Shown here: one piece after another, positions 1-7,800 of the stretch
Position numbering within the stretch: the first letter of the stretch is position 1
Layout: each line of letters starts with the position of its first letter
IMG/VR virus record: IMGVR_UViG_2579779035_000009
Strand: one strand, 5' to 3'
Length of the DNA stretch: 10,767 nucleotides
From: a virus
Lineage: Duplodnaviria; Heunggongvirae; Uroviricota; Caudoviricetes
The notes under the pieces: generated by a model
Databases searched by the model: none
What the model was told of the DNA's origin: nothing
Seen by the model: only the letters and a program-made list of their open reading frames with translations
Made by a program: the position numbers and the translations under genes

Positions 1-65
1 TCGTGTTCAGAGTCATGTGAAATCTGGGGTGATCAATTGGAATTGGAATTCGAAGAGGTAGGGGT

Positions 66-410
66 ATGACAACCGAAATTAACTACCATGCACTGCTTGA
101 GCGCGCACGGAATAAAGTGCAGAGCATTGAGTTCGCCTTAACACAGAGTGCATTCGCTGAGATTCGCGCTGAGCTTGAAAATGATTTAGAACTGGCACGG
201 ATTGCACTGGCATCTCTGGAAGTTGAGCCAGATGAACGCGCAGCCTATGAATTATTTATGGAAAAGCGTTTCGGTAAAACAGTCGATCGTCGGAGAGCAA
301 AAAACGGCGATAACGAATACATGGCATGGGATATGACTCTCGGTTGGATCGTCTGGCAGCAACGAGCTGGTATCCGTTTTTCAACAATGTCACAGCAAGA
401 GGTGAAATAA
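66..410 (+). CDS. hypothetical protein (114 aa), function unknown, possibly island-associated
   Basis: ATG at 66 is preceded by a purine-rich Shine-Dalgarno-like run (GAGGTAGGGG). The 114-codon ORF has balanced, helix-prone composition and is co-oriented with the AlpA-like gene downstream. No family recognised by eye. Confidence 0.45.
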   Translation: MTTEINYHALLERARNKVQSIEFALTQSAFAEIRAELENDLELARIALASLEVEPDERAAYELFMEKRFGKTVDRRRAKNGDNEYMAWDMTLGWIVWQQRAGIRFSTMSQQEVK

Positions 411-541
411 TGGAGCCATACAGCCTCACACTCGATGAGGCCTGTCAGTTTCTTAAAATATCCTGATCTACCATCGCCGTCATAGAGCGTATTTTTATTA
501 CCTGATTTGCAGGTTCGATTCCCTATTCGGAGATAGCACTC

Positions 542-742
542 ATGCAACACGAACTACAGCCTGATTCACTGGTTGATTTGAAATTCATCATGGCTGATAC
601 TGGCTTTGGTAAAACCTTCATCTATGACCGGATTAAGTCAGGCGACCTGCCAAAAGCCAAAGTTATCCACGGGCGAGCAAGATGGTTATATCGTGACCAT
701 TGTGAATTCAAAAATAAGCTCTTAAGCCGCGCCAATGGGTAA
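542..742 (+). CDS. AlpA-family DNA-binding protein (phage/island excisionase-regulator-like), 66 aa
   Basis: Translation contains the AlpA-type pattern: TG-x5-IYD-x-IK-x-G-x-LPK followed by G-R-x-R-W (FIMADTGFGKTFIYDRIKSGDLPKAKVIHGRARWLY). Size of about 66 aa is typical. GGAGAT lies 8-13 nt upstream of the ATG. Assignment is from motif memory, not a search. Confidence 0.65.
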   Translation: MQHELQPDSLVDLKFIMADTGFGKTFIYDRIKSGDLPKAKVIHGRARWLYRDHCEFKNKLLSRANG

Positions 743-1140
743 AATAGCGGGTAAAATATTTCTCACATCTAAAAAACACCATTCCAATCAATCCCCTGCT
801 GCTTCAAGTAGATGTCTGCAGGGGACACCATTTATCATCCCCCTCGCAATAACCCACTTACAATCAGTGAGTTATCTTAAAATCCTTAGTATAGTCAACC
901 AGTACTTCGATATGTGAACGCAAATCATCATGCATTCGTGAACTTAACTGGAAACCTCCCCCATTCGATGTCAAAATGACTACCCCAATAAGTTGCCAAT
1001 AATCAGGCTAATCAATACGGGTCAGTCTTGCTGGTCAGTGATCATAAAAATGTCACCTCATATTAGACTCAGCAAATAATTGTGTCGATTAAACATACTA
1101 CCTTCAGCATAACCGTTCCTGAAAAATTATTATATTCAGT

Positions 1141-1233
1141 AATCTGAATAAATTACTGGCCTGCTATTTTTCTTAGCAACCATATTTAGCAGCAAGCCAG
1201 CAAATCTGAATGATTACAGATGCTGGCCTGCTG
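1141..1233. repeat. Intergenic repeat cluster: two imperfect direct repeats plus a 13-bp imperfect inverted repeat
   Basis: AATCTGAAT..TTAC..CTGGCCTGCT occurs at 1141-1166 and again at 1203-1232. CAGCAAGCCAGCA (1190-1202) is the reverse complement of TGCTGGCCTGCTG (1221-1233) with one mismatch and an 18-nt spacer. Read directly from the sequence. Confidence 0.55.
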
Positions 1234-1267
1234 AATCTCCCTTCTGGAAATCGTCAGAATCTAGTGA

Positions 1268-1798
1268 TTACTTACTTTGTTCTGGTTTCTCTTCATTCTT
1301 ATTGTGCACTTCCACTTTGGGTAATTTATTAAAAACCAGATTTTCTTTTTCAACCAGAGTCATGACTTCTTTGGTGATATCAGCTGACTCGTTATGCGCA
1401 AGCACAACACCTGAAGACAATACGGCAATATTTTTAGGATTGTCTTTTCTCCATGTGCCTATGGCATTATCTATCGCACGGGATAACACCATTTTTGCGC
1501 TATTTTCCTCAATAACATATTGTCGTTCCAGTTTTTGTCTGGCATCAAGAAGCAGCGCCTCTTTATTCGCGTTATCTGCGAATGTTTTTTGCGCATCCTC
1601 ATATCCTTTTTCAAGAATACTCTTAACCTCATTCAGATGCTTTTTGGCCATGTCTCCGGCGGTAGACTGATTATAAATAGCATCGATATTAACAACTGCA
1701 ATTTCTTTTGACTTTTTCATATAAAAAACACCAGTAAGTACAATCAGCAACAGCAGCACTACTGCATTAACAACAGAAAATTTCATTACAGAACTCAT
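1268..1798 (-). CDS. Skp/OmpH-family-like periplasmic chaperone paralog with N-terminal hydrophobic anchor or uncleaved signal (176 aa)
   Basis: N-terminus MSSVMKFSVVNAVVLLLLIVLTGVFYMKK is one roughly 20-residue hydrophobic helix with no obvious AXA cleavage site. After it, KEIAVVNIDAIYNQ resembles the Skp N-terminal strand (IAIVNxxxxxxQ), followed by a K/E/Q/A-rich helical middle. The C-terminal AHNESADITKEVMTLVEKE resembles the Skp C-terminal motif (AYNSSDVKDITADVLKQVK, recalled from memory). AGGG Shine-Dalgarno 8 nt upstream of the ATG; 47 bp downstream of the autotransporter stop on the same strand. Confidence 0.55.
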   Translation of the reverse strand: MSSVMKFSVVNAVVLLLLIVLTGVFYMKKSKEIAVVNIDAIYNQSTAGDMAKKHLNEVKSILEKGYEDAQKTFADNANKEALLLDARQKLERQYVIEENSAKMVLSRAIDNAIGTWRKDNPKNIAVLSSGVVLAHNESADITKEVMTLVEKENLVFNKLPKVEVHNKNEEKPEQSK

Positions 1799-1815
1799 TA
1801 TGACAACCCTGAGGT

Positions 1816-1836
1816 GGCAGGAGGGCCCCTCCCGCC
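1816..1836 (-). promoter_or_regulatory. GC-rich intercistronic stem-loop between autotransporter stop and chaperone RBS
   Basis: GGCAGGAGGG (1816-1825) pairs with CCCTCCCGCC (1827-1836). As minus-strand RNA this gives up to about 7-9 G-C-rich pairs including one G-U wobble. No U-tract follows on the transcribed strand, so it is not a canonical intrinsic terminator. Confidence 0.4.
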
Positions 1837-1845
1837 CCTGTGTGA

Positions 1846-4800
1846 TTAGAATATATATTTAATACCCAGCATTGCCTGGGCATCACTGTACCCTTTATCG
1901 CCAGCCTGAACACCAACATTGCCCCAGACACTCAGGTTATCTGACAATTTACCCTGAACACCCGTTTTGACTTCAGCAATATTTGTAGCTCCGTCCTGAC
2001 TGAGTGCCGTATTATCCATTTTGACACCCCAGCTCCGTGTATTATGGATCCAGTTAACTTCCACAAATGGCTCAAACTGATGCGCCTTATTATCATCAGA
2101 CGCACTCTTACCTTTCAGGTAAGTTCTGACGCCCAGACGACTCTGGATATTACCGTCTCCGCTGAGCTGAACTTTCGTGCCATTCTTCTCCGTATGCTCA
2201 CTGGCTCTTACATTCATCCACGTGATCTGGGACTGCGGCTGAATATACCAGTCATAGTGGCTACCCTGGCTACCGATAAATTCGCCGGCTTTAAAGGTAT
2301 AACCCGCTTCCACTGAACCGGTAAATCCACGGGATTTCCAGGACTCCGCAGCCAGTTTTTCACCATTAACGGTATTATTAAACCATCCGTACTGGATCCA
2401 GGTATCGACATAAGCCCCGTTGTCACTACCGTCATTCTGCTGCCACGTTCCGTATAAACCGGTGCTGTATCCATTGATCGCACCTTTAGATTTATATCCC
2501 GAAAGCGAGGATGTCGTGGAACTCTTCTCATTTCCATAACCGGCCATAATCCCCAGTTGCAGACGGTCCTGACCGTCAGTCCATTGCGCAATGCTGCCAC
2601 CCAGTTGCACAACATAACGGTTACTTTGCGTATTCAGCTGTGAACTGCTGTCCTTCCAGCGATTATGACCGCCGATATGACGCATCCACATACTTGTTGC
2701 TTTCTTCTCACCAGTAAACACATCGGTATAGTAAGTTTCCCCCTCACGATCGTGCATTCTGATGTTGAACAGCGTGTTGGCTGCCGCTATGTTCGCAATA
2801 TAAGAGCCCGCTTCCGGACGATAGACCTTCTGTACAGGTTTATCCGGCGTGGGGTGTGGCTGTGGCTGCGGTTGTGGCTGCGGCTGCGGTTGTGGTTCTG
2901 GCGGCAATTCAGAACGCAGATACCAGTTACCGTCAGTACCACCCGCATTACCTTTATGCAGGAAATATTCCCATGCCCCTGCCACCGCACGGTTCTGCAG
3001 TCTGAAGTTACCGTCAGAATGCCCACCGACATGCACAATCTCAATGCCGTCAGCGGTCTGAGCCCCCTGGCCCCGGACATTATTCACCACCACGCCGGTA
3101 TCACCGGAGGTGTTACCCGTGACAATCAGTTTGTCAGTGGCAGAAGTATCATCCCCCAGCACGGTATTGATAATTAACGTACCGCCACCGGTGTAATCGC
3201 CATTTACGGTCAGGGTATTTCCTGTCTTACCACCGGCCAGACGAATGACGCCGGTATTGGTCAGTGAACCAACCGTAAAATTGCTCGCCTCTGCCGTTTC
3301 ATAACCTGAGAGAGCATTCAGTGATGCCAGTGTTCCCTGGTTATTAACCTGACCCGAAACGGTCCCCAGCCCACTCAGTGTGCCGCCATTAAGAACATGA
3401 ATGTTTTTGGATCCTGACAACGTCGCACCAGCGGCACGGGTGACTGAATCATCACCGACAATCAGAACGCCATTCTCAACCGTGGTATCACCGGTATAAG
3501 TCAGCTCATGATTAATAATCAGATTACCCGCCCCCTGTTTCACCAGAGCGCCGGAGCCAGTAATATCATTCTTCAGTAACCAGTTTCCACTGGCGGTAAG
3601 CCAGGTGACACCATCACTGTCAATCAGCCCGGTGCCCAGGTGTTTTTCATCTGAAGCCCGCAGAGCAGCATCTTTCTGCACACGGAATTCACCGCTGAAA
3701 TTACTGTTATCCCCGGAAAGCGTCAGATCAGTGGTGTTCAATATACCCACTGAACCTTTTCCGGAAAGCGATTTACTCAGGTTACTGCTGACTCCGCTAC
3801 CGTCGGCGATATCAATCGCCAGGCGATCACTAAGGCTTTCAAAGCTGATGGAACCCTGGCTTCCCAGCCCCTGTGCGCCGTTCATTTCAACCAGCGCCCC
3901 CTGGGTAAGGCTGGCATTACCGGTAAACCCGATATTGGTGCCATGTACCGTCAGGTCGCTGCCCGTGACAGCCAGCGTTCCCTCACCGGACAGCACGTTG
4001 TTTTCAATGACGCCACCATTATCATCGCCCGGCTGACGCTGCGTGCCGCTGACCGTTAGCACACTACCGCTATCAAGCTGAATGTGCGATCCCGTTTCTG
4101 TCTGCAGTACACCGACAGTCTGGCTGTATCCGTTTGTTCTGAAGACGGCATTGCTGGCGACGTTCAGATTACCTGTTGCGCCAAGAACATTGTCATTTGC
4201 CATCTGTAATGTGCCGCTGCGCACCAGCGTATCCCCGGTATAGTTATTACCGCCGTTAGACAGTGTGACAACCTGCCCCGCAGCTTCGATGGCCAGATCC
4301 CCTGCCCCCGTTAACTGTGCGCCAAGATCTGTCTGCAGTCCTTGGGCATTCGCTCTCGGTGTCAGCACCAGCGCTTTATCACCGGTTCCCTGTAAATCCA
4401 GCGACTTCAGCCCATAGCCTATGTACAGTCCGTCACCTTTAATCCCGTCGGAGCTTCCCAGCAGCTTATAGTCATAATTTCCCTGAGCTACAACTTCACC
4501 GCCCTGAGTGACATCAAACGTCTGACTGTGAGAAATAGCCTGCCCGTTTTCATCCACCAGTTGCAGTTGCCCGCCAGTACCGGTGACGGTACCCGCTGCA
4601 TTCACCAGTGTGACCAGGGTCTGCGCATCATCCTGCTCCAGCAAATTCTTACGGGTATCAACAGCCGGAATATCATTAATCACTTCATCTGGCATGGTGA
4701 CCTGAATTGTGCCTTTCCCCCGAATATCCAGCGTACCTGCAGCAGAGGTTTCAATACTGTTGCTGGCAATGGTATCGCCCGGCATAACGGAACCAAAAAT

Positions 4801-7800
4801 CAGCGTTCCGCCATTGAACCCAAGACCGCCAATCTGCTGAACACCGGAGCCAACCGTTGTGATATTCCCGCTTTCAGACATCAGCATTGCATGGGTTAAC
4901 CCGCTCGTATTCAGCCCTTCCAGAGCAAAGCTACTGGTACCCAGCTTCAGAGTTCCGGCAAATTGATCCCCGACGTTATGGCTGAATTCAAAAGCAGATG
5001 TGTCGGCATCAAGACGGGCAGACAGTGTTCCTTTGCCTGTTAACAGTGGATCAAAGGTAAAGTTGCCTGCAACTGCAGGAATAATGGCCAGTTCGCTGCC
5101 CGATTCAATATCGACGGACCCCGGGCCGGTCCCCCCATCGGTCAGCACAAGAGCTTCCTTCAGAGTGACAAGTGAACTGTTCTTCAGCCCGACATGTTCA
5201 AAATTCTGTAGTTTTACAACAGAATCCAGCGTATGAATGGCGTTATCAAAAATCAGGGAATCAGAATCTCCCTGCCCGCCATCCAGCAGGTTCCAGGTTG
5301 CCCCTTCGCCTTTAATGGTGAAGGTGTTCTTCCCGGTACCGGCAGTAACCTGATCAACATGAGCCTTACCATTGAGTGTTACATTATTATTGCCATTTCC
5401 TGCAGTCACTTCTCCTGTCAGTGTGCTGCCATCATCAAATAAAAATGTATTGTTACCCTCTTTTGCACTGACGGTTCCGGTAATACTGCCTTTATTGGTG
5501 AATGTGTTATCACCGCCGTTCAGAGCCACAACCCCCTGAATTTCAGCACCGCTGTCATTCAGTACGGTGGTATTCACTGCGTCATCAAACGCCATTGCAG
5601 TCCCGGTGGCGGACGCAGCTTTAATCTGACCTTTATTGGTAAAGGACTGTGCTTTTGAAGCATCCACTACGGCATGACTCAGAGAAGCAGAGATGAGATT
5701 ACCGCTCTGAACCACTTCACTGGCCGCATTGTTAACCACCAGAGCGGAACCGCCATCGGCCTGTGTAACATTGACACTTGCACCACTCTTCACGACAGCA
5801 CCATCTTTAGTGTTGGCAAAAATACCCGTGCCGCCCGTGCCTTTCAGATTAATGACTAATCCAGCGGAGTCAGACATATCCAGGTTAATATCGGTTTCAC
5901 TTCCGTCAGCTTTCTGGAACGCCAGTGCAATTCCACTGCCGTCTACATTAATAGTGCCGCTGTTGGTCTTGGCCAGAGAAGCAGAAGTCCGCACACCAAT
6001 GCCATCAGCCACATTAATTTCAGTCGTATTGGTTAACTGAATGCCTTCAATTTCTGCACGGTTCTCAATCCCGTGACCGACCGCACCTGCAGCATTAACA
6101 TTGATTTTCGCACCATCAATAACCAGCCCCACAGCCCCTGTATCCAGCAGGATGCCATGCGCATTTTTCTGACCTTCGATCGTTCCCAGGCCACTCCCTG
6201 CCAGGTTCAGTGACGCGCCCGCCCCCAGCTTAATGGCAGCCTCACCATCCACAGCGACGATATCCCCTCCCGTGCTGGTAATCTGAGCGTGTTCACCTTC
6301 AACAAATAATGCAACGCCATTGACCGCTATACGGCTTCCTGTATTTTCAAAACGACCATTATCAACCCAGACGCCGATATTATCTGTACCGGTAGTGAAA
6401 TCAATGTTGCCGCTGTTAATCAACAGTCCCTGATTACGCGTAATAAAGCCCTTGGCATTATTCAGCGGCGAAGAGATATCTGCCTCATTGGTAATAACCG
6501 AGCCAGTATTCGTTTGTGTAATACTGCCATCCAGAGCGTATTCATTTCCGTCAACTTCCGCGACAACAGCGCCATCCCCTACAAGGTTAACTGATGCCCC
6601 CTGTTTCAGCGTCGCTGTCGCACCACCAGTTACATATAATCCCTGAGCCTGAGCCCCCAGGATCTGGAAATCACTGCCAGCATCAGCCAGGACATTGCTC
6701 CCTTTCCCTGTGGCCCAGATACCACGGCTGCCTGTCCCGGAGGTTTTCATCAGCAGAGAGCCGGCCTGTTTTGCCCCATCTTCAATACGGAAAAGTACAG
6801 AACGTTCCCCACTAGCATCCAGCAGAGTTCCCGCTGCAATATTCGTCTTAATGGTTGCACCATCTCCGATAATACGAAAAGCAATCTGATCGGTAATACC
6901 AGAGCCGTCAGCAGCAAAGTTCGGTACTGCCGAACCATCAAGGTTAACAGTCCCTTTATTGCTGGCCTCAACGCCAATCGCCCCCTGTCCCTGCAAAGAT
7001 ATAGTACCCGCGGTCATATTAACCGTTGTTGTTGTACCAGATGCTTTTATACCCGTTGTACGGTTAGCATTATCTCCCCCCTTGAGAACGAGATTTCCCG
7101 AGTTATTAATCGTTGTAACATCTTGTGTGGCATTAGCAATTAGTCCCACACCACCATCCTGAACTGTAATATTTCCGCTGTTGGTACCAACAGCCCCCTC
7201 CTCAACCCGGACGCCCACTGTATTCTTTCCAGTAAAGATGATATTACCGGTATTATTTAGAGTGGCCCCATTACGGGCGATATACCCGGTCACTTTATCC
7301 TGGGTGGAACTTAACTGAGCCCCCGCCGTTAATAGTGTGGTCTTGTCCTTCGGATTAATGAGTTTGCCGGAAATATCATAGCCATTGCCATCCGCAATAC
7401 CGGCTATCGCACTGGCATTATCCATATTGATAATGGCATTACTTTCAATTGTGCCCTGCGCTCCCCCTTCAATTAAAGTCGCTGTAGCCCCCTCACCCGT
7501 CAGGTTGATGGTCATTCCTCCAGACGTTACTGTCGAGGCCACACCGCCATCCGATTTTCCCGTGGCAATAAGTGCATAAGAGTTCTTACCAGACGCCGTA
7601 AGTGCAGAAGAAGCATCTGCAGTTCCCTGGAATGTCGCACCGCTGGCAATACGGAATAATGTTGAGTTTTCAGTGGACACATCCATAACACCGCTTCCGG
7701 TATTATGAATGGCAGAGTCCTTTCCATAAACATAAAAGCCTATCTGATCGCTGCTGCCAAATAGCACTGCACCATTGCCTGACAGGGTCAGACTGCCGCC

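Follow-up and report, generated by a model that had tools for sequence, protein, structure and literature searches.

The locus analysed here raises the question of whether an excisionase-like gene lying next to an adhesin module marks that module as the cargo of a mobile element. The window, by which we mean the whole stretch of 10,767 nt analysed (virus record IMGVR_UViG_2579779035_000009), begins with two small open reading frames, one of which had been read as an AlpA-like regulator; from this the original prediction placed the adjacent adhesin module, as cargo, on a P4-like genomic island with its integrase and attachment sites beyond the left edge. We reach a different answer: window 1-837 is almost certainly the right end of a prophage integrated in the tRNA-Arg gene argW of Escherichia coli, and everything to the right of 837 is older island DNA.

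Positions 1-1300 showed 100% identity to the complete genomes of strains C4, T-HYM1, HYM1 and 300033, and the best match to the whole window was strain 300033, with 99.9% identity over 1-10499. As predicted, both open reading frames, at 66-410 and 542-742, are real and correspond to annotated genes in identical E. coli genomes, the first (plus strand) as a hypothetical protein (WP_000206059.1) and the second (plus strand) as torI (WP_001163428.1). The features of the window are as follows.

1-69, plus strand: 3′ end of a PAPS-reductase-family prophage gene, cut by the window edge (annotated in C4; full length, 879 bp, in 300033).
66-410, plus strand: YfdT / SfV-orf28-like prophage gene for a putative phage protein of 114 aa (PHROG 660; identity to YfdT).
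410-466, plus strand: remnant of an SfV-type excisionase gene, 18 codons, in the K-12 ypdJ region (alignment with SfV xis and IME10).
507-522, plus strand: 16-nt exact copy of argW 46-61 (T-arm), TTGCAGGTTCGATTCC, with a GTTCG pentamer at 513-517 (sequence match).
542-742, plus strand: torI (66/66 identity to PDB 1Z4H; annotated as torI in RefSeq).
719-837, plus strand: attR, P arm and core (left limit set at the attR-IHF2 primer site of the in vitro attR substrate).
816-831, plus strand: attR core, CTGCAGGGGACACCAT, the published 16-nt KplE1 core, equal to the last 15 nt of argW plus T.
838-1267: intergenic, outside the prophage (RefSeq annotation).
1268-1798, minus strand: ompH-like (OmpH-family) gene (RefSeq annotation).
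1846-9759, minus strand: upaE, 'phase-variable autotransporter adhesin UpaE' (RefSeq annotation).
9784-10404, minus strand: ipuR, a LuxR-type regulator (RefSeq annotation; role from PMC6083910).
10493-10767: ipuS switch (role from PMC6083910).

Three of these, the excisionase remnant at 410-466, the argW T-arm copy at 507-522 and the attR core at 816-831, had gone unnoticed in the original prediction.

The 66-aa product of the second gene is TorI, with 100% identity over 66/66 residues to PDB 1Z4H ('Tor inhibition protein') and a match to PHROG 66, 'excisionase and transcriptional regulator' (E 2.7e-8). In Pfam searches, TorI scored 12.7 bits against Phage_AlpA (PF05930; E 0.12), below the cut-off of 21, and 16.9 bits against HTH_17, below the cut-off of 27; E. 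coli AlpA (from CP4-57), the positive control in the same run, scored 83.9 bits. BLASTP aligned just 20 residues of TorI and AlpA, at 30% identity and with an E value of 0.003 that applies to a one-sequence comparison, a similarity that would be compatible with a common HTH superfamily only. Because the Pfam scores are below threshold and the alignment spans 20 residues, 'AlpA-like' is a fair functional analogy but not a family assignment; NCBIfam, for its part, returned no family for either TorI or the YfdT-like ORF. By its identity, torI is predicted to be the recombination directionality factor (excisionase) of the KplE1/HK620/Sf6 module, and an inhibitor of TorR as well. The earlier view of the small gene as an excisionase for a tyrosine integrase is thus borne out, both by the identity to TorI and by the presence of an IntS partner in the closest complete genomes, and so is its orientation, since torI (plus strand) is convergent with the minus-strand ompH-like and upaE genes.

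The KplE1 prophage of K-12 occupies argW and has a 16-nt core, CTGCAGGGGACACCAT, repeated at its two borders (PMC2951348). We found exact copies of this core at window position 816 and in argW of both C4 and K-12; the window copy, which begins 74 nt beyond the stop codon of torI, has torI on its left and the adhesin genes on its right. Identity of the window with attL and phage attP runs past the core to 837 (22 nt), and the 3′ end of C4 argW together with the sequence that follows it, CTGCAGGGGACACCATTTATCA, is the same 22 nt as window 816-837. In a three-way alignment with HK620, the window and K-12 were identical over 466-831 (366 nt) and unrelated from 832. The attP modules of HK620 and Sf6 showed 98.3-98.6% identity over approximately 492-837, with homology ending at 837, beyond which HK620 continues with the P′ arm and then the int gene; the annotated attP core of HK620, and that of Sf6, falls exactly on 816-831. 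Although tRNA fragments are present, ARAGORN detected no tRNA or tmRNA gene within the window, and an Rfam search of 1-1300 at E values up to 10 returned one chance snoRNA match and nothing else.

Primer attR-IHF2, CTCTTAAGCCGCGCCAATGG, marks the start of the attR substrate used in vitro (PMC3509656), and its sequence was found at window 719-738. Two direct GGGTAAAATA repeats, at 737-746 and 749-758, coincide with a repeat feature labelled 'attP' in HK620 and contain the TAAA motif that is carried by arm-type IntS sites (PMC2951348); we infer that they are P-arm, arm-type sites for IntS. Matches to the window in other genomes break at 831 where the prophage is present without UpaE, and they begin variously at 1, 212, 410-423 or 492. 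These varied starts indicate different prophage bodies with one common torI-attR end, as expected of the recombination module of mosaic phages. A search of the 41-kb C4 locus, which reaches evgS, for another core with no more than 2 mismatches in 15 found none. Judging from these alignments, the prophage boundary can be fixed to the base, at 816-837; it was read, like the identities, the att repeat and the distribution among genomes described below, directly from the sequences compared.

Since the genome from which the window derives is absent from the complete-genome collection, IntS and attL had to be inferred from near-identical relatives, and C4 and 300033 (99.8-99.9% match to the window) served as proxies for the far end of the prophage. 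Relative to window position 1, intS and argW lie 30.3 kb and 31.6 kb to the left in 300033, and approximately 37 kb and 38 kb to the left in C4. Inspection upstream did therefore reveal a tyrosine integrase and a tRNA gene with a 3′-end repeat, as had been anticipated, but farther away than the roughly 20 kb that the original prediction had allowed; and while the integrase and argW are indeed beyond the left edge, one of the two attachment sites, attR, is inside the window at 816-837. C4 IntS was 99% identical to K-12 IntS, and the attL regions of C4 and 300033 were nearly identical to the experimentally dissected attL of K-12. IntS contains the Pfam domains Arm-DNA-bind_3, Phage_int_M and Phage_integrase, the same three as IntA of CP4-57, to which it is 33% identical over its full length (E 2e-68), indicating that it is a P4-type integrase.

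The resemblance to P4 ends with this integrase and with the use of a tRNA site flanked by a repeat, because the gene content is not P4-like. Continuous phage genes extend over approximately 39 kb in C4, ending with intS and tRNA-Arg, and comprise a lambdoid cI/cro/Q region, lysis, terminase and portal genes, an HK97-type protease and capsid, and genes for tail sheath, tail tube, baseplate, tail fibres and an acyltransferase. The prophage of 300033 is smaller (about 32 kb) and degraded, with many pseudogenes and no head genes. No P4-type gene content was found in the annotated prophage body of these relatives, which carries virion genes instead. From this content, the element is best described as a mosaic prophage of 32-39 kb, with lambdoid control, HK97-type head and Mu-type tail genes. 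The copy in the source strain may no longer form phage.

The mosaic character extends into the left part of the window. The stop codon of the PAPS-reductase-family gene overlaps the ATG of ORF 66-410, which matched PHROG 660 (unknown function; E 5e-23) and whose C-terminal 81 aa are 81% identical to K-12 YfdT; Pfam yielded no family for this YfdT-like ORF or for ORF 735-917. Phages SfV and SfIV showed 93% DNA identity to window 201-466. The excisionase remnant that follows is closed by a premature TGA at 464-466, where SfV xis and phage IME10 read AGA, and homology to SfV xis stops near 472. The SfV-like early region (1-466) is thus joined, near 472-492, to an Sf6/HK620-type torI-attP module (492-837), a join recorded in the window by an SfV-type xis broken off at 464-472 with the Sf6/HK620-type module beyond. 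A hairpin terminator, clean in HK620 and decayed in the window, lies near 472-492, immediately to the left of 492. The GC content is 46% in 1-465 and 42% in 492-837, then 37-39% in 838-1798, 49% in upaE and 32-38% in ipuR/ipuS, so that the compositional mosaic noted originally is real (32-49% across segments).

Previous work has established that a recombination module consisting of attL, intS, torI and attR is common to KplE1, HK620, Sf6 and CUS-3 (PMC2951348; PMC3509656), and that IntS, TorI and IHF recombine attL and attR both in vitro and in vivo (PMC2951348). Five TorI sites have been mapped in attL, with GTTCG, GATCG and GTCCG as key pentamers, and the intS promoter is repressed by TorI (PMC2951348), which also has a documented anti-TorR activity (PMC3509656). 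Excision and its regulation at the locus of the window would be expected to follow this literature, which concerns the identical sequence of K-12. IntS, encoded at the far left beside argW, would act together with TorI and host IHF to excise the prophage by recombination of attL with attR; TorI would take part in excision through GTTCG-type sites in attL, and would in addition repress intS and be able to inhibit the response regulator TorR. The island DNA to the right of 837 very probably adjoined argW before the phage integrated, and excision of the prophage would leave it in place, rejoined to argW. A 2013 study by Menouni et al. reportedly showed that torI is kept silent by Rho-dependent termination. 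Bicyclomycin raises the copy number of KplE1, as described in a 2024 paper that cites Menouni et al. 2013 (PMC11551753).

The genes to the right of attR have a separate history. Beyond the window, C4 continues with ipuA, ipuB, dsdC, dsdX, dsdA, emrYK and evgAS. The invertible ipuS element confers phase-variable expression of ipuR-upaE (PMC6083910), and a review names the island PAI-CFT073-argW, with IpuA, IpuB and DsdA among its products (PMC7545054); a variable argW-dsdCXA island is attributed to Moritz & Welch 2006, as cited in PMC7545054. The adhesin module (ompH-like, upaE, ipuR, ipuS) belongs to this known argW-dsdCXA island. In the window, ipuS lies in the ON orientation.

To compare the distributions of prophage and module, we surveyed 5,426 complete E. 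coli genomes. The torI gene with the P arm (query 523-815) was present in 1,405 of them and the UpaE flank (query 838-1900) in 233-253, but the junction of torI, attR and UpaE (query 560-1100) in only 36. More than 1,300 genomes, K-12 included, carry torI without the adhesin module. Conversely, a 701-nt query for the empty site, composed of yfdC, argW and the sequence after window 831 (coverage at least 80%), detected 186 of the 5,426 genomes in which yfdC-argW runs straight into the UpaE flank and the prophage is absent. E. coli 042, one of these, has argW followed by the OmpH-family gene, a truncated upaE and then IS1, with no integrase, and in K-12 the order is torI, attR (annotated as pawZ) and dsdC, with no UpaE. 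Comparison with genomes lacking the region had been expected to define an island around the module; instead, torI and the UpaE flank vary independently, and the boundary falls at attR. Because attR stands between torI and the module, and because the two are independent in the population, the adhesin module is a neighbour of the mobile element and not its cargo, as had been proposed. It is accessory DNA beside a tRNA gene, a matter separate from torI.

How this accessory DNA arrived can be explained in more than one way. It is quite conceivable, although we do not favour it, that the locus holds two elements in tandem: UpaE-IpuR-ipuS-IpuA/B would be an early argW-targeted island whose integrase and distal repeat have since disappeared, and the torI prophage would have entered the regenerated argW later. 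The block begins right after the argW 3′ end, with the window and K-12 diverging at 832; it occurs in just the 233-253 genomes given above; and its GC content of 32-49% departs from the E. coli average of about 51%. Its cataloguing as PAI-CFT073-argW points the same way (PMC7545054). Yet the 41-kb locus contained no phage-type integrase and no distal att repeat for the UpaE block, the only candidates being the FimB-like invertases IpuA and IpuB. Nor does K-12 offer a clean empty site: its homology to the window locus stops at 831 and restarts inside dsdC 12.3 kb on, and 108 bp of unrelated sequence occupy the place of the UpaE block. An exchange of the segment through homologous recombination in flanking genes would account for the data just as well. 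The tandem alternative bears on where the adhesin module came from and does not conflict with our explanation of 1-837 as the right end of a prophage.

We consider it unlikely that torI is kept mainly as a domesticated host regulator, serving as TorR inhibitor and intS repressor in a decaying, immobile prophage. In its favour, the 10-kb defective prophage of K-12 carries an identical protein and an identical 366 nt of DNA, the prophage of the closest genome is degraded, and the anti-TorR activity of TorI is documented (PMC3509656); but IntS and TorI remain able to excise the 10-kb remnant of K-12, both in vivo and in vitro (PMC2951348), and attL, attR and intS are intact in the relatives. In the active phages HK620 and Sf6, moreover, conservation of the gene is 100% (PMC3509656), so that no host function is required to explain why it has been kept. 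Finally, a P4-like integrative island, with an AlpA-like gene, an integrase and att to the left, and the adhesin module as mobile cargo, is highly improbable: torI is an excisionase partnered with a P4-type integrase, and the adhesin region, low or mosaic in GC, adjoins a tRNA gene, but attR separates torI from the adhesin genes, the module stands beside an unoccupied argW in 186 genomes, more than 1,300 have torI-attR without it, the 41-kb locus to evgS has no second core even at 2 mismatches in 15, and the prophage body is without P4 genes.

The sequence upstream of torI within this prophage end contained a further trace of argW. The T-arm 16-mer at 507-522 had one match in the window against 0 expected from 200 shuffles, and it is kept in K-12, HK620 and IME10. 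The last nucleotide of the 16-mer corresponds to the first of the att core (argW 61-76), so that joining 507-522 to 817-830 would restore the 3′-terminal 30 nt of argW; the two argW-derived pieces are separated by torI and the P arm (293 bp). We also considered thrW, the target of SfV, as the source of the 16-mer and set it aside, since, by eye, its match needs gaps, as opposed to 16/16 for argW. A promoter and terminator scan of 1-1300 gave results not above those of shuffled sequences, with none upstream of torI.

Using TorI as the query, we retrieved 24 loci from other species, 21 of which were aligned. In 11 of these 21 loci, a GGTTCGA box stands 27-36 nt before the ATG of xis, most often at -29 or -30; the box-bearing loci are from E. 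coli, an Erwinia phage (two tandem copies), Enterobacter, Serratia, Citrobacter, two Pantoea, two Edwardsiella and a MAG, and the sequence 5′ of the box is unalignable among them. In four of these loci, another GTTCG or GTCCG follows the box at a distance of exactly 12 nt, overlapping the ribosome-binding site; the window has ATTCG (525-529) at this position. The 35-nt segment that holds the box in Enterobacter is missing from Dryocola, indicating that the box is dispensable. In HK620 and Sf6, the depositors labelled the site as a putative pI promoter, a cII site or a 'boundary sequence'.

The GGTTCGA box could be a TorI auto-operator, another cis-element, or a relic of a longer tRNA-derived attP. 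We suggest, tentatively and with more doubt than confidence, that the box CAGGTTCGATT(C/T), at 510-521 and about 30 nt before torI, is an unrecognised cis-element and/or a relic; an auto-operator would be its likeliest role, given that GTTCG, a TorI pentamer established by experiment, lies within it and that a second one often follows downstream. If it is a relic, torI and the P arm may have entered an ancestral attP that had a longer copy of the argW 3′ end, at the precise left boundary of its core. Such an insertion would explain the unusual xis-attP-int order in this phage subfamily.

Everything central to this locus is already known, as the torI/IntS system, the argW hotspot and the ipuS-UpaE switch have all been published; the T-loop-like box is the sole possible addition, and a small regulatory detail. 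Annotators should count neither the UpaE adhesin nor its phase switch as phage- or island-borne cargo that torI/IntS mobilises. The locus also illustrates a general trap, in that an excisionase gene found beside a virulence module at a tRNA hotspot can stem from a later, independent insertion; the way out is to locate the att repeat and to seek genomes with an empty site.

These results can be set against several named systems. With P4-like satellite prophages, the element shares a P4-type integrase and insertion at a tRNA 3′ end with a direct repeat of 16-22 nt, but its relatives carry terminase, portal, capsid, tail, baseplate, lysis, Q and cI/cro-type genes. AlpA and IntA of CP4-57 are likewise a small wHTH protein and a P4-type tyrosine integrase acting on an att site in a tRNA or tmRNA gene; there, however, alpA is 1.2 kb from intA at the same end, whereas torI and intS are at opposite ends of the prophage. 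HK620 and Sf6, with their hkaC and gene 18, respectively, are P22-like and have the same order of xis, arm repeats and core, followed by int in the phages; unlike our element they are podoviruses, and their relationship to the window stops at 492, to the left of which the window is SfV/SfIV-like.

The closest counterpart, KplE1/CPS-53 of K-12, is identical over 466-831, including the xis remnant, the T-arm-like 16-mer, torI, the P arm and the core, and is inserted in argW as well. It differs in being a 10.2-kb remnant with gtr genes, while the relatives of the window's prophage span 32-39 kb with structural genes and an O-antigen acyltransferase, and in having yfdS upstream of YfdT, where the window has the PAPS-reductase-family gene upstream of the YfdT-like ORF. 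The K-12 core is followed by dsdC and that of the window by the UpaE island, and it is this difference in flank that makes the att identity 22 nt in the window's arrangement and 16 in K-12. As for PAI-CFT073-argW, the window contains ompH-like, upaE, ipuR and ipuS, with ipuA, ipuB and dsdCXA next in C4, as in CFT073 (PMC6083910; PMC7545054); what sets the present locus apart is the prophage between the island and argW, an arrangement shared by only 36 of the approximately 233 complete genomes that bear the island.

At the right end of the window lies the switch element of the island:

10493-10767, ipuS invertible element, in the orientation opposite to that of all close complete genomes

Alignment to strain C4, a near-identical complete genome, showed that the C4 segment is the exact reverse complement of window positions 10500-10760, the inverted segment being bounded by 7-bp inverted repeats (TGACCCA / TGGGTCA). 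The best complete-genome matches to the window all end at 10499, and the right end of the window is exactly the distal inverted repeat of ipuS. With ipuS in this orientation, ipuA, which lies on the minus strand past the right edge, is predicted to read TTT TGA, replacing K with F and losing 11 residues. An ipuA with F for K and 11 residues fewer is, by definition, the ON state (PMC6083910); the predicted reading matches that state, and so the window carries the UpaE switch in its ON position.

The distal side of the island has undergone a large IS-associated deletion in E. coli 042, whose locus (L004 17091-23946) is devoid of the ipuR-ipuS-ipuAB-dsdCXA-emrYK-evgAS stretch and has a truncated oxc directly adjoining IS1. 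At the same locus, IS1A truncates upaE at its 5' end.

At the prophage end of the window, torI is preceded by two short elements and the remnant of another gene:

410-466, dead second excisionase gene: SfV-type xis, first 18 codons
507-522, 16 nt copied exactly from the T-arm of argW, 19 nt ahead of the torI start codon
525-529, ATTCG, at the place where other torI-type loci often have a second TorI-binding pentamer

In argW itself, the stretch copied at 507-522 ends at the first nucleotide of the att core. Of 21 torI-type loci from several genera, 11 have a conserved GGTTCGA box at about -30, and the DNA upstream of it cannot be aligned among them. This box contains the TorI-binding pentamer GTTCG, often followed 12 nt downstream by a second one. 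From these sequence features, the box may be either a TorI auto-operator or the remnant of a longer tRNA-derived attP. The xis remnant, ended by an AGA to TGA change at 464-466, corresponds to ypdJ of K-12, and SfV xis belongs to the HTH_17 family; the remnant marks a mosaic joint between SfV-like and Sf6/HK620-like DNA.

One further reading frame spans the junction with the chromosome:

735-917, 60-aa ORF, overlapping the torI stop codon, crossing the attR core and entering bacterial DNA

Its phage version, 46 aa long and lying across attP, is annotated as hkaB in HK620 and as gene 17 in Sf6. This ORF is probably not a real gene, because its C-terminus differs with the integration state and a Pfam search found no match.

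In the C4 assembly, the part of the prophage that lies between the yfdQ-like gene and the PAPS-reductase gene (L001 18442-19785) includes 719 N bases. These account for the pseudogenes that the annotation reports in that region as "partial" or with "ambiguous residues"; the corresponding genes are intact in strain 300033. In both prophages, an acyltransferase-family gene directly adjoins intS (L002 16232-17353 in C4; L010 30070-31137 in 300033). The C4/300033 prophage is probably serotype-converting; the place of its acyltransferase gene is occupied by the O-antigen acetylase gene oac in Sf6 and by the gtr genes in KplE1 of K-12.
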